From assembly GCA_041651015.1 (NCBI GenBank), contig JBAZKA010000002.1, positions 6,163 through 70,162 on the forward strand: 64,000 bases of DNA. The letters run 5' to 3'. This document shows positions 4,897-17,443 of this stretch, in pieces. The stretch is from Patescibacteria group bacterium (lineage in GTDB: Bacteria; Patescibacteriota; Patescibacteriia; Magasanikbacterales; GWA2-37-8). Under the pieces are notes generated by a model. The model was given only the letters and a program-made list of their open reading frames with translations. It was not told the DNA's origin and made no database searches. Made by a program: the position numbers and the translations under genes. How positions within the stretch are numbered: the first letter of the stretch is position 1; the number at the start of each line of letters is the position of its first letter.

Positions 4897-5299
4897 ATTA
4901 TTTAATCAAATATTATCACAACAAACCAGATAAATCAAAAACCACCCTATTTTGTAAAAAACCCGAGAAATTTATCTCGGGCTTTCAGGGTTCAATGGAA
5001 TCCGTACTCGACAAATATATTTTGTCGAAAATTCACGCTTTTGTCAACATAACCGTGAATAGATGTGATTTTTTCGGAATTATTCACGGTTATCAAGCTA
5101 CAACAAATAGCCATAATTACGTATCCGAAGCTCGCGCGCGAGATTTTCAAACGTATTGCCCTCCTCCATAATATCTGATATATTTAATTCATTATACCCC
5201 TCGGGGTATAACCCAAATTCATTAAAAATTTTATCATATTTTAGCGGTTTTTACCACTAGTTATGATAAAGGTAGTTCAGCGACATCGCTTCGCTCGTC

Positions 5300-5560
5300 G
5301 CTGAATGAGCCGCGCTTACAGCGTTGTCGTCTCGTCGCTTCGCGACGTCGCCGAACAACGCTTATACAAAATGTCCGTCGCCCGCTTGCGCGGCTCCGGC
5401 CACATTGTATAAGCGCGGCTCGTTATATGAAATACATGTTTTCCTTTTGGGCTTCGCCCAGCTCTTAAAAAGAATTCAATTTTGTTTTTTTATTAATTAA
5501 TGAGGGGGAATAAGGTGTTTTTTCCGCTGTCGCTACAAAAACGATTTATTTATAAGGGGA
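5300..5560 (+). repeat. island repeat copy 1 (long hairpin gagccgcgcttaca...tgtataagcgcggctc + conserved core gttatatgaNatacatgttttcc...gctcttaaaaagaat...)
   Basis: core about 70-80% identical to 13197-13320 and to the reverse complement of 15955-16090. Confidence 0.7.
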
Positions 5561-5599
5561 AAACGAATACAATAACTTTGCCTAACACGAAAATAGTTT

Positions 5600-7408
5600 A
5601 TGCCAAAAATTAAGGATATACCAAAAATTGATCGCCCAAGAGAAAGGTTTCTGAAAAAAGGAGCTGACGCACTTTCAAAAAGTGATCTTTTGGCAATTCT
5701 TTTAGGTAGTGGAATTAAGGGGAAAAATGTTAGACAACTTTCTGAAAGTATTATTAAAAAATTTGGTAAAAACTTTTTGAACATAACCGTTGATGATCTT
5801 TTAGAAATTTCAGGGATTGGACAAGCAAAAGCCCTCCAAATAGCGTCCGCAATATCATTAGTAAAAAGATTTTACGACGAAAACAAAACTAATGAAATCG
5901 TTATAAAAAATTCTCAAGATGTTTTATCCCTTACTTACGATTTAAGAGATAAGAAAAAAGAACATTTAGTTTGCCTTTATTTAAACGCACGAAATACTTT
6001 ACTAAAAAAAGAAATTGTCAGTATCGGTCTTTTAGATAAGGCATTACTGCATCCGAGAGAAATTTTTTATCCTGCAACCGAATTAAACGCCGCCAGCGTT
6101 ATTTTGGTTCACAATCACCCTTCGGGCGATTCTTCACCAAGCGAAAAAGACAACCAAATCATTGAAAAAATCGTACAAGCTGGTGAAATAATGGGAATAC
6201 CAGTTGTTGATTTCATTATCATTTCTGAAAATAATCATTACAGTTTCTACGAAAAATTAAATAAGCAAAAAGCAAGCGTTGATTATGTTGCAGACGGAAT
6301 ACAAGGCACACTTTTTGCCGTACTTGAAGTTGAAAAACCCGCCTACGAGGTAACGGCTATACAAAAAATTGATAAACCCTATTTCCACTTTTCAAAAACT
6401 CAAAATGATACCTTCCAATTGCAGAATAGAAGATATTTGGGCAATAAATACAAACTGCTCGGATTTATTGAAGATATTGTTGCTGAAAAATGCAACGGAA
6501 TAAAATCATTTTGTGATATTTTTGCGGGTACAGGTGTTGTCGGAGAAAGATTTAATAAGCCAGAAATAAAAATTATTTCGAATGACTTCCTTTTTACAAA
6601 TTATGTTTGCCTAAAAGCGTTCCTTGGTACAAATTCACCTATTCAGAAAATTGCAGATAAAATTGATATTCTCAATAGTTTAAAAACTGATCGAGATAAT
6701 TATTTTTCAAAATACTTTGGTAATACCTATTTTTCGCTAGAAAATGCTAGAAAGATTGGAGCAATCCGTGAAGAAATAGAAAAAATGGCCGAAACGGAAG
6801 AAGAAAAAAAAATTCTCATTTGTTCCTTAATTTATGCAGTTGATAAGGTTGCAAATACAGTCGGACATTATGACGCTTTTCGTAAAGATTTAGATATGCT
6901 ACAGCCATTAAAACTTTTGGCTCCCGATATTGACTACTTAAATAATGGAAATAACGAAATTTACAAAGAAGACGCAAACATCTTGATTAGAAAAATTGCT
7001 TGCGACGTTTTGTACATAGATCCGCCCTATAACTCGCGCCAATATTCAGATGCCTATCATTTACTGGAAAATTTAGCTGAATGGAAAAAACCTAATGTTG
7101 AAGGAATGGCAAAAAAAATGGACCGCTCTCACATAAAAAGTTCCTATTGTCTTAAAAATGCTACACAAGCATTTGAGGACTTGATTAAAAATGCTAATTG
7201 TAAACATATATTATTGTCTTATAATAACACTAGGGATTCAAAGGATGGACGTTCAAATGCCAGAATAAACGATAATGATATTTTACGGATATTAAAAAAT
7301 AAAGGTGAAGTAGAAATTTTTGAAAGAGATTACAAGGCCTTCACTGCTGGAAAAAGCAACGGCGACGGAAACGTCGAAAGAATTTTTTATTGTAATATAA
7401 CAAAATAA
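5600..7408 (+). CDS. fusion protein: N-terminal RadC-like JAB/MPN domain + C-terminal Dam-like (D12, alpha-class) N6-adenine DNA methyltransferase
   Basis: 602 aa. N-terminal half has helix-hairpin-helix and the RadC HNHPSG(x)SPS(x)D motif. C-terminal half has RYLGNKYKLL, FxGxG (DIFAGTGVVG) and DPPYNSRQY in Dam-family order. Confidence 0.75.
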   Translation: MPKIKDIPKIDRPRERFLKKGADALSKSDLLAILLGSGIKGKNVRQLSESIIKKFGKNFLNITVDDLLEISGIGQAKALQIASAISLVKRFYDENKTNEIVIKNSQDVLSLTYDLRDKKKEHLVCLYLNARNTLLKKEIVSIGLLDKALLHPREIFYPATELNAASVILVHNHPSGDSSPSEKDNQIIEKIVQAGEIMGIPVVDFIIISENNHYSFYEKLNKQKASVDYVADGIQGTLFAVLEVEKPAYEVTAIQKIDKPYFHFSKTQNDTFQLQNRRYLGNKYKLLGFIEDIVAEKCNGIKSFCDIFAGTGVVGERFNKPEIKIISNDFLFTNYVCLKAFLGTNSPIQKIADKIDILNSLKTDRDNYFSKYFGNTYFSLENARKIGAIREEIEKMAETEEEKKILICSLIYAVDKVANTVGHYDAFRKDLDMLQPLKLLAPDIDYLNNGNNEIYKEDANILIRKIACDVLYIDPPYNSRQYSDAYHLLENLAEWKKPNVEGMAKKMDRSHIKSSYCLKNATQAFEDLIKNANCKHILLSYNNTRDSKDGRSNARINDNDILRILKNKGEVEIFERDYKAFTAGKSNGDGNVERIFYCNITK

Positions 7409-7410
7409 CT

Positions 7411-9228
7411 ATGAAAAAACCTTGGTCAATTACTACAACACTAAGAAATCCCGAAAGATTGAGAGATTTTTTAATTGTTTTAAGACAACTTGAAAATTGC
7501 AAGTGGGATTTAGAAAGTCAGAAAAAATATCAAATTCTTTTGATAAAAGAGAGGGTTTACGGCTATGGAAGCAATCAATTTTACAATGGATTATCTCAAA
7601 AACAAATTGATTTAATTGACGATCAAACAAAAACAATTACCTTTGAACAAGCCGAAACGATTTTTAATGCTAAAAACTACGAAGATCCTTCAACGAGAGG
7701 GCGGCAATCAATAAATCCTCTTAAAAAATTCGGACTCGCTGTTATTAAAGACGAAAAAATCTGTATAACCAGCTTAGGAAAACTATTTTTAAAAGACGAT
7801 TTTGATCTTGGTGAAATATTTTTTAGAAGTTTTATTAAGTGGCAAATCCCAAATCCTGATAGCGATGACTATAAACTTGAAGATGGATACAATATAGAAC
7901 CATTTGTCGGCGTGCTTCATCTTATTCGGGAAGTAAATGAAAAATCTAGAAAATCAGGAGAAAAAGAAAAAGGAATAAGCAAGGAAGAATTTTCCTTATT
8001 TTGTCCAACCCTTGTTGATTATGAAGATATAGAGCTTTATTCTGAAAAAATTATTGCCCTACGGAAAAAACTTAAAGACAAAACGAAGCAAGAACAAAAA
8101 ACAATCCGCGACAAATATAAAAAAACTTTCGCACGGGAATTTCTTGGAAAATCAAATACTACAGAAATTCAAAAACTCTTAAAAAATCTCAAAGACTACG
8201 GAGATAACGCTATCAGATACTTCCGCCTAACTCGCTATATTTATATACGGGGTGGTGGTTTTTATATTGATCTGGAGCCGAGAAGATCAGTTGAAATCAA
8301 TGCTTTGTTGGATTTTGATAATGCTAAGTCGAAGACCTTTGAGACAAAAGAAAAATACTTAGACTATATTTCTGACATCTCGGAGCCAAAACTACCGTGG
8401 GAAACTAAAGAAAAGCTTACTGAAATTGCCATAAAATTACTTGAAGAAATAAAGTTGTTTGAACGAGAAACAAGGGTAACACCAAAAGTATTTTTGGATT
8501 ATCAAAAATTGGATGGAGATGGATTAAAAAAATTTATCAATGAACTGCGAAACTACCGAAGAGAGCTGCAGGACAAACAAAATCACCAAAAATCACAAGA
8601 TACGGAACAAATTAAATCCTACATTCAAGAACTTGAAAATATTTTTGAATCTGAAGATCGGCCAATACTGCTTGAAAAGTTGTCATCGCTAGGTCTGAAT
8701 GCCCTAAACGATGCATTAAAAATACAACCAAACTATCCAGTTGGTGATGATAACGAGCCAACATTTACGGCACCGGCAAACACGCCAGATATAGAGTGTT
8801 TTTATCAAGGTTTTAATGCTATCTGTGAGGTAACAATGCTAACGGGAAGAGATCAATGGTACAACGAGGGGCAACCAGTGATGAGACATTTAAGAGATTT
8901 TGAGAATAAACATAGCGATAAAACTACATATTGCTTGTTTATTGCTCCCCAAATGCACAGAGATACTATAAACACCTTTTGGACAGCCATAAAATACGAA
9001 TACGAGGGCAACAAACAAAGAATAATCCCTTTATCAATAAACAATTTCGTGTCTCTTTTAAAAATACTCGTACAAATAAAAACCGAGAATAAATTTTTAA
9101 AGCACAGCGAAATTGCTCGCCTATACGATGAAATAATTAATTCATCAAATTCTTTTAGCGATTCCGATGGTTGGCTTAGAAATATTCCCACCGCCATTTC
9201 GTCATGGCAAGAAAGCCTAAATTTTTAA
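7411..9228 (+). CDS. putative Type IIS restriction endonuclease, AlwI-family-like
   Basis: 605 aa. N-terminal W-x-I-T-T-x-R-N-P-E-R pattern recalled from RE_AlwI-family proteins. Located 2 bp after one methyltransferase and overlapping the next. Family assignment is from memory, not a search. Confidence 0.5.
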   Translation: MKKPWSITTTLRNPERLRDFLIVLRQLENCKWDLESQKKYQILLIKERVYGYGSNQFYNGLSQKQIDLIDDQTKTITFEQAETIFNAKNYEDPSTRGRQSINPLKKFGLAVIKDEKICITSLGKLFLKDDFDLGEIFFRSFIKWQIPNPDSDDYKLEDGYNIEPFVGVLHLIREVNEKSRKSGEKEKGISKEEFSLFCPTLVDYEDIELYSEKIIALRKKLKDKTKQEQKTIRDKYKKTFAREFLGKSNTTEIQKLLKNLKDYGDNAIRYFRLTRYIYIRGGGFYIDLEPRRSVEINALLDFDNAKSKTFETKEKYLDYISDISEPKLPWETKEKLTEIAIKLLEEIKLFERETRVTPKVFLDYQKLDGDGLKKFINELRNYRRELQDKQNHQKSQDTEQIKSYIQELENIFESEDRPILLEKLSSLGLNALNDALKIQPNYPVGDDNEPTFTAPANTPDIECFYQGFNAICEVTMLTGRDQWYNEGQPVMRHLRDFENKHSDKTTYCLFIAPQMHRDTINTFWTAIKYEYEGNKQRIIPLSINNFVSLLKILVQIKTENKFLKHSEIARLYDEIINSSNSFSDSDGWLRNIPTAISSWQESLNF

Positions 9229-9230
9229 AT

Positions 9231-10007
9231 ATGGGTATGAAAAAAAATATTATCTACAACGACGATTGCATAAACATACTTAACACGAAGATTGATAAGA
9301 GTTCTATTGATCTTGTCTTTGCCGACCCTCCGTACAATTTATCTGGCAATGGTCTAAAATGGCAGGGCAGCAAAACTGGTGGAGATTGGTATATGGTGAA
9401 TGAGCATTGGGACAAAATGACTGCCCCTGAATATCTACAATTTACCAGAAAATGGATCGGGGCTTGCCATAAAATTTTAAAAGACACAGGATCAATTTAT
9501 ATTGCATGTAGTTACCACAATATCGGTGAGGTAATGATTGTTTTGAAACAATTAGATTTCAAGATAAATAATATTATTACTTGGTACAAAACAAACGCCA
9601 TGCCGAATATGACAAGGAGGGTGTTTACTCACGCAACAGAATTTGTAATTTGGGCTGTTAAAGGTAGTGGATGGACTTTTAATTATAAAGATCTTAAAGA
9701 AATAAACCCTGAAAAACAAAAAGACGGAACCGAAAAACAAATGCGTGATTTTTGGGAATTACCCTTAGTTCAAGGCAAGGAAAGAATACGCGGAAAAGAC
9801 GGCAAAGCGTTACATCCAACTCAAAAACCAGAAGAAATGTTAAAAAGAATCATTTTAGCCAGTTCCAATGAAGGCGATACTGTTTTAGATCCATTTTTAG
9901 GAAGCGGGACAACTGCCGTTGTGGCTAAAAAATATGGTCGCAAGTGGATTGGGATTGAAAAAGAAAAGCAATATTTTAAGATTGCTGAAGAGCGAATAAA
10001 AAAATAA
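9231..10007 (+). CDS. beta-class N4-cytosine/N6-adenine DNA methyltransferase
   Basis: DPPY (FADPPYN) N-terminal and FxGxG (DPFLGSGTT) C-terminal, which is the beta-class order; ATG 9231 chosen to avoid overlap with upstream stop at 9228. Confidence 0.8.
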   Translation: MGMKKNIIYNDDCINILNTKIDKSSIDLVFADPPYNLSGNGLKWQGSKTGGDWYMVNEHWDKMTAPEYLQFTRKWIGACHKILKDTGSIYIACSYHNIGEVMIVLKQLDFKINNIITWYKTNAMPNMTRRVFTHATEFVIWAVKGSGWTFNYKDLKEINPEKQKDGTEKQMRDFWELPLVQGKERIRGKDGKALHPTQKPEEMLKRIILASSNEGDTVLDPFLGSGTTAVVAKKYGRKWIGIEKEKQYFKIAEERIKK

Positions 10008-12959: not shown

Positions 12960-13330
12960 AAGAAATAAGGAGTTTTGAATTTTGGGCATTCACCCCTGAC
13001 CCCTCTGCCCAAAATCCAAAACGGAAAAAGAAATTTTAAAATTTTTTAAAACAATTCCGACTGCTGTCGGAAAAAAGAAAAGGAATACATCAGCTAACAA
13101 CGAGTATCCGGTTACGGCTTTCCCCGAAAGCCTCCACCCAAATTTTTCTTTCGCTTCGCTTCAGAAAAACTTCGGATACTCGTAACGTTATATGACATAC
13201 ATGTTTTCCGTTGGGGCTGCCGCCCCGCTCTTAAAAAGAATCCGATTTCGTTTTTTGGTGATTGAGCGAGGGGAAATATAGTGTTTTCTTCGCTACGCTA
13301 CGAAAACCGAATTATTTAATAAAAAATATT
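12960..13330 (+). repeat. island repeat copy 2 (inverted partial core 12960-13030, hairpin aacgagtatccg...cggatactcgt 13088-13197, direct core 13197-13320)
   Basis: aligned by eye to copies 1 and 3. Confidence 0.7.
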
Positions 13331-14137
13331 ATGGCTGACAACTACTACGTTTACGTCTACATTGATCCTCGGAATTACGAGGAATTTTACTATGGAAAAG
13401 GCAAGGGCAACAGAAAAGTAGCGCACCTATATGATGAAAAAGACACAGAAAAAACTAAAATTATAAAAGCCATTCAAAAAGAGGGGCTTGAACCTATAAT
13501 TAAAGTGGTTGCAAAAGGATTATCAGAAAGTGATGCATTTTTAATCGAAAAAACTTTAATTTGGAAACTTGGAAAAAATTTATCAAATATTTCATCGGGT
13601 CATTTTTCAGATAAATTCAGGCCACATAATAGTTACCACCTTAATCTGAATAGTTTTGATTTTGCAAACGGAATTTTTTATGTAAATGTTGGCGAAGGCG
13701 AAACTCGGGCATGGAGAGATTGCCAAAATTTTGGCTTCTTGGCGGCTGGGCAAGGCACAAAGTGGAGCGAACCACTAAAAACATTGAATATCGGTGATAT
13801 TGTCGTGGCATACTTAAAACGAAAGGGATATGTCGGAATTGGTAGGGTAGTCGAAAAAGCCAAGCGGGTACTGGATTTTAAATTTGACGGAAAATCGCTA
13901 AAAACCCAAACTTTAGACAGCACCGATCTCTTTAAAAATTCAGATAATGAGAATACAGAATTTTTGGTCAAAATCGATTGGATTAAAAGCGTGCCGACAA
14001 ATGAAGCGAAGTGGAAAAATAATTCGGGACTATTTACAACACAATTAATTAAGGCATCACTTGAAAACCAGGTAAAAACAATTAATTTTTTAGAAAAAGA
14101 ATTCCATGTTAATTTTACGGACATAATGAACGATTGA
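13331..14137 (+). CDS. GIY-YIG nuclease fused to PUA-like (EVE-type) domain; putative modification-dependent endonuclease
   Basis: N-terminal YVYVYIDP...FYYGKGKGNRK is a GIY-YIG-type motif. C-terminal W-RDCQNFGFL...IGDIVVAYL...GYVGIGRVV resembles the EVE/PUA beta-barrel pattern. Start moved from 13262 to ATG 13331. Confidence 0.55.
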   Translation: MADNYYVYVYIDPRNYEEFYYGKGKGNRKVAHLYDEKDTEKTKIIKAIQKEGLEPIIKVVAKGLSESDAFLIEKTLIWKLGKNLSNISSGHFSDKFRPHNSYHLNLNSFDFANGIFYVNVGEGETRAWRDCQNFGFLAAGQGTKWSEPLKTLNIGDIVVAYLKRKGYVGIGRVVEKAKRVLDFKFDGKSLKTQTLDSTDLFKNSDNENTEFLVKIDWIKSVPTNEAKWKNNSGLFTTQLIKASLENQVKTINFLEKEFHVNFTDIMND

Positions 14138-14265
14138 TATATTTTATAAAATTATTAATTCCGCTAATTTTCAATTCATACTCAAATATACATATTAGTA
14201 AATTTGATTATTGGATTAATTGAAGCCCTTGTTGATAACTTTTTGTTAATAGTATAAAAATGGCT

Positions 14266-14290
14266 AATTTTAGCCATTTTTATAACTACT
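14266..14290. promoter_or_regulatory. palindromic operator-like site AAAAATGGCTAAttttTTAGCCATTTT
   Basis: near-perfect inverted repeat directly upstream of the -35; related GGCTAA..TTAGCC motifs at 15894-15917, 27680-27695 and 27807-27829. Confidence 0.45.
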
Positions 14291-14299
14291 TGACATAAT

Positions 14300-14329
14300 C
14301 AAAAAAATCATTTATAATATCATTATTCC
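14300..14329 (+). promoter_or_regulatory. near-consensus sigma70 promoter (TTGACA-18-TATAAT)
   Basis: TTGACA 14300-14305, TATAAT 14324-14329, about 40 bp upstream of ATG 14371. Confidence 0.6.
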
Positions 14330-14370
14330 TACACAAGTAGTACTTCACACTAAATTAATTAATTTTTCTT

Positions 14371-15096
14371 ATGAATCAAGAAAATAAACAAATAACTCCA
14401 CCATATTTGAGCATGGCAAAACTTGCCAAATTAGTTGAAATCGTGAAATCAAGAAACATGACCCAGGTTAATCCTACTCATTTTATCACTCAAGGATTCA
14501 GTCAGGCAGATGCATACGTTGCAATAAACTCATTGCGCTTCCTGGGTCTAGTAGATGACAACAATAATACCACCGATTTATTTCGTAAATTTCAATTAGT
14601 AGGAGAACAGGGCAAAAAAGGCATGGAGGAAGTAATAAAATCTGCATACTCTAAATTATTTGAATCATTCGCTAATGGGAATCCATACGATGAAGGAAAT
14701 GAAGATAATTTAATAAATGATTTCATGATTCAATATGCTATATCAAAAAGAATCGCGGGACCAGCATCAAAAGCATTTGTTTGGTTGTGCGAACAAGCTG
14801 GACTCAGAGAACAATCCATAAAAATACAAGAAAGAAAAATCCGTGTTACATCAACAAAAAAATTGGCAGATAAAAGTAACAACAAAAACAAACCGCAAGC
14901 TGACACAAAAAATGAAAATCCTACTGGAGTAGCTCTCACTCTTAATGGTGGTATTATCATATCAATACCAACAACGGACATAAGAACATCACAAGCAATT
15001 GCATTGGGCGAACTTAAAAGCGCCGTCGAGGAACTTAATAAGTTTGCATTAAAATATATTGTGGAAACCGAAACTAAAAATAATGATGCTGTATAG
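14371..15096 (+). CDS. hypothetical protein (helical N-terminal domain, Lys/Asn-rich linker, small C-terminal domain)
   Basis: 241 aa with no catalytic motif recognised; first gene of promoter-driven pair. Confidence 0.55.
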   Translation: MNQENKQITPPYLSMAKLAKLVEIVKSRNMTQVNPTHFITQGFSQADAYVAINSLRFLGLVDDNNNTTDLFRKFQLVGEQGKKGMEEVIKSAYSKLFESFANGNPYDEGNEDNLINDFMIQYAISKRIAGPASKAFVWLCEQAGLREQSIKIQERKIRVTSTKKLADKSNNKNKPQADTKNENPTGVALTLNGGIIISIPTTDIRTSQAIALGELKSAVEELNKFALKYIVETETKNNDAV

Positions 15097-15111
15097 CAAA
15101 CTTACCATACT

Positions 15112-15732
15112 ATGAATATCTATCTTGACGAATCATACAATCTCCAAAAAAATAAAGGGAAAATGTTTATAAGCATCAACGGGTTTGCTGTCCTTGATGA
15201 TAAAGTACTCCGCAAACGCTGGAAAATCGTTCGAAAGGATTATTTAAAAATGAAACGACGTATTCACGCGACTGATTCACGCTTTGAGGATCTCCGTGGA
15301 AAAAGTATAAAAATGCTTGGACGTCACGATGTAAATATTCTTTCGATATTCCAACTGACGCAAGAAATATCTCATGACTACTTTGATACAAATGGCATAA
15401 GATTTGATACCGTGTACACTTCTCTTCTTAAAAAACTATTCACTGATTTATCTCTTGGTGAATACAAGCAAGCACGCATAGTTATGGACGCGAGAAAGCA
15501 TAAAGGCGGGATACTTGGGGAAATCATTTTCCAAAAAACTATCGAGGGATTTCTTTCTGATAAATTCCCTTCAACACGCTGTGTGTTAAAACTTACGCCA
15601 TCCTACGCAGACATTCTGATTGAACTTGCAGACTTTGTGTCCAACACATTTTACAAAGAATATCAGCAAGATTCGGAACACATATTCAAGAAACTTGGAT
15701 TTCGGTTGATACAAATCAAAAACCCGCTATAA
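15112..15732 (+). CDS. DUF3800-like protein
   Basis: 206 aa. N-terminal MNIYLDESYN matches the conserved N-terminal D-E motif recalled for DUF3800; sits 15 bp after the upstream gene. Confidence 0.55.
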   Translation: MNIYLDESYNLQKNKGKMFISINGFAVLDDKVLRKRWKIVRKDYLKMKRRIHATDSRFEDLRGKSIKMLGRHDVNILSIFQLTQEISHDYFDTNGIRFDTVYTSLLKKLFTDLSLGEYKQARIVMDARKHKGGILGEIIFQKTIEGFLSDKFPSTRCVLKLTPSYADILIELADFVSNTFYKEYQQDSEHIFKKLGFRLIQIKNPL

Positions 15733-15871
15733 AAGCGGATTTCCGTAAGAGCCTTTTGGGAATGTCTTTGCTTCAACGAGATGTTCCTGAAAGAGAACGC
15801 CCTCCACAAAGCTTTACCCTAAGGACTTATCTTCTAAATACATTATAACATGAATAGCCGGTTTAGTCAAT
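15720..15871 (-). ncRNA. candidate small antisense/convergent transcript (promoter TTGACT-17-TATAAT at 15871-15843 on minus strand; terminator hairpin ccgct-tttat-agcgg + T-run at about 15745-15720)
   Basis: promoter and intrinsic terminator read directly on the minus strand; no ORF; transcript ends at the stop codon of the DUF3800-like gene. Confidence 0.3.
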
Positions 15872-15949
15872 GTACTGTGGATAATTATTAACATTTTGGC
15901 TAATTCAAGCCAAAATTATAGTACACTGGAGACAAAAATTAATGTTTTT

Positions 15950-16165
15950 GGCCGCCGGGCATTCACCCCTTTTGTTCCCCTCTGCCCTGCGCCCAAAAGC
16001 GACAAAAAACGAAATCGGATTCTTTTTAAGAGCCATTTGAATTGACGAAATAACGGAAAACATGTACATCATATAACAGCGTGTATGCGGCTACGGTTCC
16101 CCTATCGGCGAACCTCCGCCCATATCGCTAAGGCGACATCGCATACACGCGAACGTTGTACGAAA
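15950..16165 (-). repeat. island repeat copy 3 (inverted orientation; core 15955-16090, hairpin cgcgtgtatgcg...cgcatacacgc 16090-16160)
   Basis: reverse complement aligns with copies 1 and 2 (gttatatgatgtacatgttttccgtt...gctcttaaaaagaatccgatttcgtttttt). Confidence 0.7.
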
Positions 16166-16715
16166 TAAATTATTTACTAGCCCCACCAGCATTGAAGGGA
16201 GGTAACAATGAAATGGTGGCGAAAAGTGGTAGAAATCTATCACAACATGTTCAATGTGAAGTTCGCTGTCCTTTCGGCCGCCTTTAATGGTCTGGTCGCA
16301 ATGATGGTGAACATGGCACACAGCCCCGAGCAGTACCTGATGGCAGGACTTGCACAGGCGGCCTCAAGCTTCCTGTCAACCGGAGTCACGGCAAGAGTGG
16401 TTCAACACTTTTCGCCCATTCGGTCCGCGCCAGTCTCGTACTTCTTCGGAAGCTTGGTGCCTGCAACCATGACGTTTGTGATGAGCTTGGCAGTTCACCT
16501 TTGGAACAACACTCCAGAGGTTCTGGCAAGTTGTGTGGCTCCGACGGTCATCAGCTACACGACCAGCTACATCACAAACTACATCACCCGGCGTGGCTAC
16601 ATGCTGCCCGGAAACTACAAGGAGGTGCAAAAATGATCCCGCGTCAGCCTCCGAACAGGACTGACGCGGGACACTCACTCAATGAATGTGGGGCTAGTAA
16701 ATAATTTAGCCGATA
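16166..16715 (+). mobile_element. 550-bp unit bounded by perfect 19-bp inverted repeats (AAATTATTTACTAGCCCCA / TGGGGCTAGTAAATAATTT) carrying one GC-rich ORF
   Basis: IRs at 16166-16184 and 16697-16715; interior GC content clearly higher than flanks; 11-bp-stem hairpin after the ORF. Confidence 0.5.
16208..16636 (+). CDS. hypothetical hydrophobic protein (GC-rich, probably foreign)
   Basis: 142 aa; strong SD GGGAGGT 6 nt upstream of ATG; several hydrophobic segments. Confidence 0.5.
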   Translation: MKWWRKVVEIYHNMFNVKFAVLSAAFNGLVAMMVNMAHSPEQYLMAGLAQAASSFLSTGVTARVVQHFSPIRSAPVSYFFGSLVPATMTFVMSLAVHLWNNTPEVLASCVAPTVISYTTSYITNYITRRGYMLPGNYKEVQK

Positions 16716-16864
16716 TGCGGTTCAAGAAAAAAGTATAAATATTTTCAGCGGATATTTTTTTCTCTCACCCATATTTCGCACACATCTAAATAATATGGAA
16801 TGTGCGAAACATCGCATATCGGCATACGTTATCTGAAATTAAATTTCTGGACTATAATAAAATT

Positions 16865-17443
16865 ATGGATTTACGCATTTACAACGAGGCTAAGCAATTT
16901 GTTTTTGACTCTTTCAATAAAGCCGAAAAACCTTCGCAGATAAAACATTTTGTCAAAACAGTGCATTGGTTAAAAATTCTGTCGCCTAATGCCGATGAGG
17001 CGTTGCTCGTAGCGGCGATTGCTCACGATATCGAAAGGGCTTTTCGACAAAAAGATGTTTTAGAAAAAAAGACTTCAGCGGGTTTTACAAGTATAGAATT
17101 TTATCGTCTGCATGAAGAGCGTGGCGCTGAAATTATTGCTGAATTTCTAAAACATAAAAACGTGGATGACGGCTTTGTTGAAAGAGTTAAAAAGTTGGTT
17201 TCTCGACATGAAGAAGGCGGTGATGATGATCAAAACCTACTAAAAGATGCTGATAGCGTTAGCTTCTTTGAAACCAACGTTCCATTTTTTCTCGATAAAA
17301 AATCATTGGAAATTGGCAAGGAAAAAGTTAGACTGAAATTTGATTGGATGTATAATAGAATAACATCCGAAAAAGCGAAACAAATTGCTCAGCCTATGTA
17401 TGAAAAAGCAATTAGTGATTTAAACAAGGGTCCGGAAATTTAA
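16865..17443 (+). CDS. HD-domain phosphohydrolase
   Basis: H...HD motif (AAIAHDIER) and downstream D (LLKDAD); start placed at ATG 16865 (MDLRIYN). Confidence 0.6.
   Translation: MDLRIYNEAKQFVFDSFNKAEKPSQIKHFVKTVHWLKILSPNADEALLVAAIAHDIERAFRQKDVLEKKTSAGFTSIEFYRLHEERGAEIIAEFLKHKNVDDGFVERVKKLVSRHEEGGDDDQNLLKDADSVSFFETNVPFFLDKKSLEIGKEKVRLKFDWMYNRITSEKAKQIAQPMYEKAISDLNKGPEI

Follow-up and report, generated by a model that had tools for sequence, protein, structure and literature searches.

A compact accessory module of Patescibacteria pairs a DUF3800 gene with a convergent, predicted structured RNA

This study concerns a locus in a 64,000-nucleotide stretch of a Patescibacteria contig (JBAZKA010000002.1), referred to here as the window, where two open reading frames (ORFs) lie one behind the other on the plus strand and a putative small RNA gene points towards them from the minus strand. 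A first-pass annotation had read the two genes as a candidate for an undescribed defence system with a palindromic operator. Its layout of the locus was borne out, as the genes are indeed 15 nt apart and the signals of a convergent small transcript that would end at the stop codon of the second gene are present, with a promoter at 15870–15842 and a terminator at 15745–15717. The conserved unit is a different one. The second gene, ORF B, encodes a DUF3800 protein, and together with the small RNA it very probably makes up a compact module of ~800 bp in the Patescibacteria (Candidate Phyla Radiation, CPR), consisting of a DUF3800 gene and a convergent structured RNA of ~124 nt. The features concerned are:

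14371–15096, plus strand: ORF A, 241 aa, DUF5343 and PADLOC PDC-M34A family (hidden Markov model matches)
15112–15732, plus strand: ORF B, 206 aa, DUF3800 with an RNase H2-like fold (Pfam match)
15870–15842, minus strand: small-RNA promoter, TTGACT-N17-TATAAT with an upstream TG, its position conserved in essentially all related loci
15835→15712, minus strand, convergent with ORF B: predicted structured small RNA, ~124 nt (conservation, covariation, covariance model at 65–147 bits)
15745–15717, minus strand: small-RNA terminator hairpin, 12 pairs, with a U-tract to ~15711, overlapping the ORF B stop codon at 15730–15732

The assignment of ORF B to DUF3800 had been made in the first-pass annotation and holds, with a Pfam match (PF12686) of 28 bits (gathering cut-off 21, E 4e-6) that covers positions 1–148 of the 149-position profile. 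An AlphaFold2 model built with 31 homologues (pLDDT 93.6, pTM 0.90; predicted local distance difference test and template modelling scores) has its best structural matches in RNase HII, H2A and HIII. Both the N-terminal D-E motif and a C-terminal QxxD-type motif on an RNase H-like fold are found in ORF B, and the carboxylates D6, E7, D126, D167, E171 and D174 are invariant across its family. These residues are predicted to sit at the carboxylate positions of RNase H2, an assignment made from secondary-structure position and a published description (PMC7736814), without superposed structures. Judged by the model, ORF B is a nuclease-like protein of RNase H2 type whose acidic residues are all in place. 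Its close relatives number more than 250, are 50–81% identical and nearly all exactly 206 aa long, and come from Magasanikbacteria, Uhrbacteria, Falkowbacteria, Nealsonbacteria, Paceibacteria, Jacksonbacteria and others; literature on PF12686 was limited to unrelated genome surveys. The last seven codons of ORF B (IQIKNPL*) double as the terminator of the partner RNA on the opposite strand, and it is because of this double use that I202, K203, N204, P205 and L206 appear invariant, or nearly so, in the family.

A search of 185,579 species genomes with the DUF3800 alignment yielded 40 related genome loci, the search patterns being the most conserved stretches of the family. In 35 of the 40, the DNA directly 3′ of the DUF3800 stop codon is 75–92% identical over 130–200 nt, at protein identities of 45–81%, which puts its conservation above that of the protein. 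Aligned on the minus strand, these regions consist of a TTGACA-N17-TATAAT promoter at a fixed position, ~95 nt of conserved sequence and then a terminator hairpin whose 3′ half and U-tract read, in reverse complement, as the last DUF3800 codons. RNAalifold predicts four helices with 29 pairs from 34 sequences:

P1: alignment columns 10–19 with 79–88
P2: alignment columns 25–30 with 67–72
P3/P4: alignment columns 34–42 with 51–60
Fourth helix: the terminator, with compensatory changes in all seven of its pairs (helix 4 of alignment A8)

The RNA would thus be shaped as one extended arm, in which three helices are stacked and the internal loops are conserved, with the intrinsic terminator behind it. 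In the MAFFT alignment of the 34 sequences, 98.4% of cells are paired (39–66% in slid controls) and 14 of the 29 pairs carry compensatory changes (1–6 in slid controls), and none of 500 shuffles matched the observed pairing and covariation values. Compensatory changes rise to 20 of 29 pairs in a model-based alignment of 45 sequences that adds non-seed members, an alignment fitted to the structure and hence biased towards it. The RNA lies on the minus strand, as is evident from the promoter, the terminator and the many G-U pairs, including an invariant U-G, which on the opposite strand would give C·A mismatches. A conserved coding function for a 27-codon GUG frame in the window was ruled out by alignment indels that are not multiples of three.

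Mean column identity of the RNA is 82%, and P1 and the internal loops (GUAAAG, ACAUUCCCAAAAGG) are almost invariant, which suggests that they are recognised in a sequence-specific manner. Variation is confined to an apical loop of 4–8 nt and a linker, with no hypervariable guide-like segment. Rfam 15 holds no family for this RNA; scans of positions 13000–17000 by E-value, of the 301 nt at 15650–15950 at E up to 10 and of the whole window at the gathering threshold turned up tRNAs and, beyond these, nothing but chance hits caused by the terminator (rnk leader, Trp leader). One further conserved sequence stands shortly before the −35 box of the RNA promoter:

15876–15884, minus strand: TTATCCACA, identical to the DnaA-box consensus

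Allowing up to one mismatch, 16 of 38 loci have this sequence in the 90 nt that precede the RNA start, where shuffles predict 0.5, and in 15 of the 16 it sits at −47 to −58. It may be a regulator binding site, and the same position is occupied in L003, L005, L011, L018, L021, L023, L031, L042 and other loci.

An RNA that ends inside the gene it faces could act on that gene directly, limiting the nuclease in cis through pairing of the 3′ overlap with the DUF3800 mRNA or through transcriptional interference, in the manner of a type I antisense RNA. The genes are convergent, with an obligatory overlap of RNA and coding sequence of at least 21 nt and the same geometry at all loci, and the plus strand has no good U-tract past the hairpin, such that the mRNA may read through and be fully complementary to the RNA. 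Simple antisense pairing would, however, need neither covarying helices nor invariant loop and P1 sequences, and other DUF3800-associated RNAs lie on either strand and on either side of their gene (PMC5737381). No pairing signal was found at the translation start region: RNAduplex runs that paired the RNA with this region of DUF3800 in 30 loci had a mean z of −0.8 relative to shuffles and pointed to no consistent site, and antisense action in trans was likewise rejected. We consider antisense control in cis quite unlikely.

Wherever a full-length DUF3800 gene has enough 3′ flank, the RNA is present. Covariance model R1 finds it at 65–143 bits in the window, which has a single copy, and in 36 of the 40 loci, and it also recognises the non-seed loci L027 and L029 (65 bits, E 2e-12), which have 60% GC and encode proteins 45% identical to ORF B. 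Of the remainder, L026 has a partial RNA match at a contig end, and in the other three the contig ends inside the gene or holds an N-terminal gene fragment alone. For the opposite direction, from RNA to gene, an 18-nt degenerate RNA pattern was scanned in viral contigs (IMG/VR) and in metagenomes. A viral origin of the RNA was rejected, with none of 76 IMG/VR pattern matches positive with the covariance model. Among 119 pattern-matching metagenomic stretches, 13 contained the RNA, and 11 of these have a convergent, overlapping DUF3800 gene encoding a protein 38–77% identical to ORF B (one looks frameshifted). Decayed copies were also found. L213 retains the RNA (939–1064) and the last 49 DUF3800 codons (1047–1193), while at L214 the RNA (5168–5275) is followed by a Mutator/IS256-family transposase gene (5261–6319, minus strand) exactly in the place of DUF3800. 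The L213 remnant adjoins a HisRS-like gene, assigned by eye from sequence, and a DUF4202/HD gene flanks the RNA of L214, as it does in the window.

Beyond gene and RNA, little else travels with the module. Flanking genes of DUF3800 differ in each of the 40 loci, and the 128 immediate neighbour ORFs of 37 loci match 139 Pfam families, none of them in more than three members. No promoter or other element is conserved upstream of DUF3800 across loci, where the regions are unrelated and some have a terminator and TATAAT box of their own; in 29 of 37 loci the upstream ORF runs on the same strand as DUF3800, in eight of those at a distance of no more than 25 nt. The unit is therefore autonomous, a DUF3800 gene and its cognate structured RNA with no other conserved neighbour. 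It is also accessory, because its positions vary, one metagenome-assembled genome (MAG) of the Patescibacteria (JAHJGG01) has two diverged copies on different contigs (L013 and L021, 64% and 57% identical to ORF B), decayed copies exist and only 40 loci were found among the 185,579 species genomes.

Such scatter could reflect a small mobile element, in which DUF3800 would be the transposase or homing nuclease and the RNA an element-encoded factor. Genomic position differs in almost every genome, one MAG carries two copies, and the module often stands right behind the 3′ end of unrelated genes. The loci nevertheless have no terminal repeats or conserved ends, with conservation stopping at the start codon and just upstream of the RNA promoter; the best structural matches of the protein are RNase HII and HIII, not transposases; and no copies were found in viral contigs. 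We regard a mobile element as highly improbable.

ORF A had been described in the first-pass annotation as a gene without recognisable domain, which is mistaken. It matches Pfam DUF5343 (E 3e-11, 44.1 bits, cut-off 27) and the PADLOC model PDC-M34A (E 2.5e-12), a model that every relative tested also matches. Its architecture comprises an N-terminal winged-helix domain (residues ~10–148), a disordered linker and a small C-terminal domain of a beta-hairpin and a helix. ORF A is a predicted winged-helix nucleic-acid-binding protein of a separate candidate-defence family, PDC-M34A. We found no literature on DUF5343, PDC-M34 or PF17278. The likeness to PADLOC PDC-M34 lies in ORF A, which matches the PDC-M34A model, whereas ORF B and the other downstream partners of DUF5343 match no PADLOC model; PDC-M34 is itself a candidate system, for which we found no published test.

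Conservation of the pair of ORF A and ORF B as a unit, with its palindromic operator, was central to the earlier proposal and largely fails. A tblastn search with ORF A against ~50 related DUF3800 loci found an adjacent DUF5343 gene, apart from the window, in L042 alone, and the pair is shared with that one other lineage. The L042 block has GTTGATAACTTT, a degenerate palindrome and a TTTACA-N17-TATAGT promoter, and its flanks differ from those of the window. Its DUF5343 protein is 55% identical to ORF A over the first 164 residues and unrelated at the C-terminus; 10 nt further on lies a DUF3800 gene (73% identity to ORF B), and the RNA is present. In a neighbour-joining tree the DUF3800 proteins of the window and L042 fall in different clades, and the nearest relative of each, P0002 (81% identical to the window protein) and P0014 (88% to that of L042), has no DUF5343 gene.

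Relatives of ORF A (four by single-sequence search, 25 by profile search) are found in three operon types. Two have unrelated partners of ~320–334 aa, and the third, with DUF3800, is restricted to the window and L042. The two other types occur in CPR contigs, as follows:

L041 4642–7014, L044 5001–7395, L248 1573–3995, L251 334–2700: DUF5343, a DUF5343 paralogue and a ~334-aa protein (contigs L041, L043/L044, L248, L251)
L045 5001–6651, L046 5001–6663, L250 1286–2945: DUF5343 and an overlapping ~320-aa protein with a C-terminal DTHDRW motif (contigs L045, L046/L047, L250)

Each of these two operon types has its own TTGACA-type promoter. The ~320-aa and ~334-aa partners match no Pfam or PADLOC model and are of two unrelated types, and the idea that they are hidden DUF3800 relatives was rejected on these grounds. 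A 206-aa ORF upstream of DUF5343 in L248 looks DUF3800-like by length, yet it is not DUF3800 and no RNA is found there. These operons are an uncharacterised candidate system in their own right, and a modular arrangement of DUF5343 with interchangeable partners is possible.

In a broader reading, DUF5343 as a winged-helix sensor or regulator, DUF3800 as effector and the RNA would form one defence system, an effector-swapping variant in which the palindrome is the operator of DUF5343. All examined DUF5343 genes head operons of two or three genes, with three partner types in nine independent loci; promoter, DUF5343, DUF3800 and RNA recur together in L042 (55% and 73% identity, other flanks); and DUF5343 matches a PADLOC candidate-defence model, has a DNA-binding fold and lies here inside a defence island. 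Set against this, ~50 other loci have DUF3800 and the RNA without DUF5343, the two linked DUF3800 copies stand in different clades with nearest relatives that lack DUF5343, the C-terminal regions of the two DUF5343 proteins are not homologous, the gap to DUF3800 is 10–15 nt where other DUF5343 partners overlap, and the palindrome is not conserved in the DUF5343 family. A three-part system is, in our judgement, unlikely, and ORF A is at most an optional, lineage-specific addition to DUF3800, probably co-transcribed with it.

The region in front of ORF A carries two further features:

14253–14284, no strand: perfect palindrome with 15-nt arms, TATAAAAATGGCTAA-TT-TTAGCCATTTTTATA
14290–14295 and 14313–14318, plus strand: sigma-70-type promoter TTGACA-N17-TATAAT, 12 of 12 consensus positions

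The palindrome had been noted before at a size of 25 bp, which understates it, and the near-consensus promoter next to it was correctly identified apart from its spacer, which is 17 nt and not 18. This promoter probably drives ORF A and also ORF B. Its homologue in L042 is TTTACA-N17-TATAGT, and L042 also holds the sole homologue of the palindrome, a degenerate AAATGGCTTTAATTAGCTATTT in which the hairpin is kept by a G-U-compatible change. No palindrome was found at the equivalent position upstream of nine other DUF5343 genes; with this, and with L042 having a degenerate copy only, the designation as an operator is unsupported. The palindrome lies 116 nt past the stop codon of a GIY-YIG gene and 5 nt ahead of the −35 box, and has an A-run and a T-run at its sides. 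Several related loci have a terminator hairpin right before the TATAAT box upstream of DUF3800. Given its position behind the GIY-YIG gene, its A- and T-runs, the G-U-kept pairing in L042 and the similar order of terminator and TATAAT box in related loci, the palindrome is more likely a terminator or insulator of the GIY-YIG gene, possibly bidirectional, than an operator. A hairpin-forming TTTTGGCTAATTCAAGCCAAAA at 15890–15912, upstream of the RNA promoter, resembles the core (GGCTAA...) of this palindrome; L003, L005 and L011 retain it in part.

For the function of the DUF3800–RNA module, we favour, at a probability of roughly one in three, an explanation in which the RNA binds and controls the DUF3800 nuclease with a logic like that of toxin–antitoxin or abortive-infection systems. 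An abundant RNA would bind the nuclease through its invariant P1 and internal loops, and this binding would control its activity and hold it in check. The RNA is probably made in excess over the protein, judging from its near-consensus promoter at essentially every locus and from a DUF3800 gene that often lacks a promoter of its own, and such an excess would be expected of an RNA antitoxin. Together with the RNase H2-like fold and its carboxylates, and with the role of DUF3800 in retron type VII and CRISPR loci, it points to an RNA-controlled nuclease. A parallel may be seen in retron type VII, where DUF3800 is the effector beside a reverse transcriptase and its msDNA.

Several observations weigh against this explanation. 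ORF B matches no PADLOC model, and the 76 IMG/VR matches were chance pattern matches without a single positive. Related modules lie mostly among housekeeping genes (translation GTPases, M17 aminopeptidase, DprA, RpoC, PolA, pyruvate kinase, tRNA synthetases) and not in defence islands, with few and scattered PADLOC matches among the 128 neighbour ORFs, hence the neighbours lend no support to a role in defence. The adjacency of DUF5343 and DUF3800 has held through ~45% and ~27% protein divergence and differing flanks, and a functional tie between the two is possible. Finally, the unusually high sequence conservation of the RNA would be expected of a cofactor or ribonucleoprotein subunit no less than of an antitoxin.

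This last point leads to an obligate ribonucleoprotein, in which the RNA would serve the nuclease as a structural or catalytic cofactor, be it a scaffold, a specificity subunit or a processed substrate, and the complex would have a role in the cell or in conflict other than toxin–antitoxin. The extreme conservation of RNA sequence across CPR classes, with P1 nearly invariant, and the strict one-to-one linkage of RNA and gene are consistent with it, and the DUF3800-I RNA was judged by Weinberg et al. (PMC5737381) to show features of a “sophisticated biochemical function”. A hypervariable, guide-like stretch is missing from the RNA, though, and patchy distribution and decayed copies argue against an essential housekeeping role, and we hold this explanation to be doubtful. 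In its widest form, DUF3800 proteins would be a widespread class of RNase H2-like nucleases, each dependent on a dedicated structured RNA subunit and active as a ribonucleoprotein only, to which the window perhaps adds a DUF5343 sensor to give a three-part immune system. We rate this proposal as improbable; if true, the CPR module, in which a 206-aa protein and a ~124-nt RNA share a terminator, would be the most compact and strictly linked example and the best entry point to the roles of at least 12 unrelated RNAs.

Returning to the window, the module forms the end piece of a low-GC island (30–38% GC over 5.3–16 kb, 43–51% in the flanks) that contains an AlwI-type restriction-modification system, DUF4297-HerA and a GIY-YIG/PDC-S11 gene. 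The defence-island setting between the second and third copies of a repeat, as first described, is confirmed by this gene content and by the repeats at 13187–13294 and 16003–16077. The idea of a candidate defence system accordingly survives in so far as the locus is an accessory module of conflict type and sits in a defence island, but not as the proposed two-protein unit. In the window, ORF B has the DUF5343 and GIY-YIG genes on its upstream side and, on the other, a 142-aa ORF of unknown function. The repeat copies are:

5422–5528 (5422–5490 in a narrower delimitation), direct: island repeat, copy 1
13187–13294 (13187–13257 in a narrower delimitation), plus strand: island repeat, copy 2, left bound of the segment with GIY-YIG, DUF5343, DUF3800 and the RNA
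16003–16077, minus strand (inverted relative to copy 2): island repeat, copy 3, right bound of the segment

Copies 2 and 3 share a perfect inverted arm of 31 nt and a further 26 nt at 92%. The repeat unit of ~75–110 nt thus occurs three times, with direct copies preceding the block of restriction-modification and HerA genes and the GIY-YIG gene. The inverted copy stands ahead of the small-RNA promoter, which leaves a 2.7-kb segment enclosed by copies 2 and 3 as inverted repeats. These repeats could be cassette boundaries, the ends of an invertible segment or a shared regulatory region, and sequence akin to them is also present in other CPR contigs (L232, L005, L004). Within 5600–10007, a protein of 602 aa combines a RadC-like JAB domain with a Dam-type (D12) methyltransferase, an unusual fusion, and genes for an AlwI-family or nicking-type endonuclease and an N6/N4 methyltransferase come after it. 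The protein encoded at 13262–14137, for which an ATG at 13331 is the likely true start, has an N-terminal LEM-3-like GIY-YIG nuclease domain (PADLOC PD-T4-3-like) and a C-terminal domain that matches the PADLOC candidate PDC-S11 (E 1.5e-36). The 142-aa ORF (16208–16636) lies in a patch of higher GC and is flanked by a 30-nt inverted repeat (16166–16195/16679–16708, 90% complementary), and the two may be another small cassette.

RNAs associated with DUF3800 have been an open puzzle since 2017, and DUF3800 proteins of retrons and CRISPR loci are still without a known activity. The present RNA adds a new class from the poorly studied Patescibacteria, where strict one-to-one linkage, a small, well-modelled protein and a short RNA backed by strong covariation, with a clear promoter and terminator, make experiments easier, and where the decayed copies, replaced by an insertion sequence or truncated, are natural controls. 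The terminator within the last seven DUF3800 codons is a case of dual coding. The annotation of the locus is also corrected, with the DUF5343 gene placed in a separate, uncharacterised candidate-defence family with interchangeable downstream partners.

The first-pass statement that no described system has this composition needs qualification, in that DUF5343 is already the PADLOC candidate PDC-M34A, DUF3800 is known from retron type VII and CRISPR loci (PMC7736814, PMC10910872) and DUF3800-associated RNAs have been described (PMC5737381). DUF3800, fused to the reverse transcriptase or encoded beside it, is the accessory protein of retron type VII and RNase H2-like (Mestre et al. 2020, PMC7736814). 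Such retrons resemble the module in that a DUF3800/RNase H2-like protein is paired with a structured non-coding nucleic acid of its own, within an accessory unit of defence type, but the window module has no reverse transcriptase beside it (reverse-transcriptase models hit one of the 128 neighbour ORFs), and its RNA lacks the msr/msd architecture. The C-terminal motif of ORF B is ExxD (E171–D174), where QxxD is typical of the DUF3800 family. TPR-DUF3800 proteins accompany Cas12a2 and Cas12a3 (PMC10910872, PMC13594972), and Csx32 of Cas13 CASK operons carries DUF3800 (10.64898/2026.08.25.746378). In these CRISPR-associated proteins the same domain occurs in RNA-centred immune loci, its function likewise unknown, whereas here there are no cas genes or CRISPR array and no TPR fusion, and the partner is a dedicated structured RNA.

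With type III toxin–antitoxin systems (ToxIN, CptIN, TenpIN) the module would share its proposed logic only, a small, highly expressed RNA that neutralises a nuclease by binding to it directly, in a compact accessory module of two parts. Each locus here has one structured RNA unit and not tandem repeats, the genes are convergent whereas type III genes are co-directional with the RNA upstream of the toxin, and the fold is RNase H2-like where that of the toxins is ToxN/AbiQ/CptN. It differs from type I systems in that ORF B is a 206-aa soluble RNase H-like enzyme and not a small hydrophobic peptide. The module therefore fails the defining features of type III toxin–antitoxin systems and of retrons, yet it may work like them.

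The closest comparison is with the eleven mutually unrelated RNA motifs found next to DUF3800 genes, several with terminators, for which no functional hypothesis was given (Weinberg et al. 2017, PMC5737381). Later functional work on DUF3800-associated RNAs was absent from the literature searched, and on structured RNAs in CPR bacteria we found only unrelated reverse-transcriptase work. Like DUF3800-I to -XI and the drum and skipping-rope RNAs, the RNA described here would be a conserved, covarying RNA beside a DUF3800 gene, an independent transcript with a Rho-independent terminator, outside the 5′ untranslated region and of unknown function. It matches none of their Rfam models (E >0.5, terminator only), comes from Patescibacteria and differs in its fixed convergent geometry, with the terminator inside the DUF3800 coding sequence. 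On this comparative sequence evidence, the predicted small RNA is a further, uncatalogued class of DUF3800-associated RNA.

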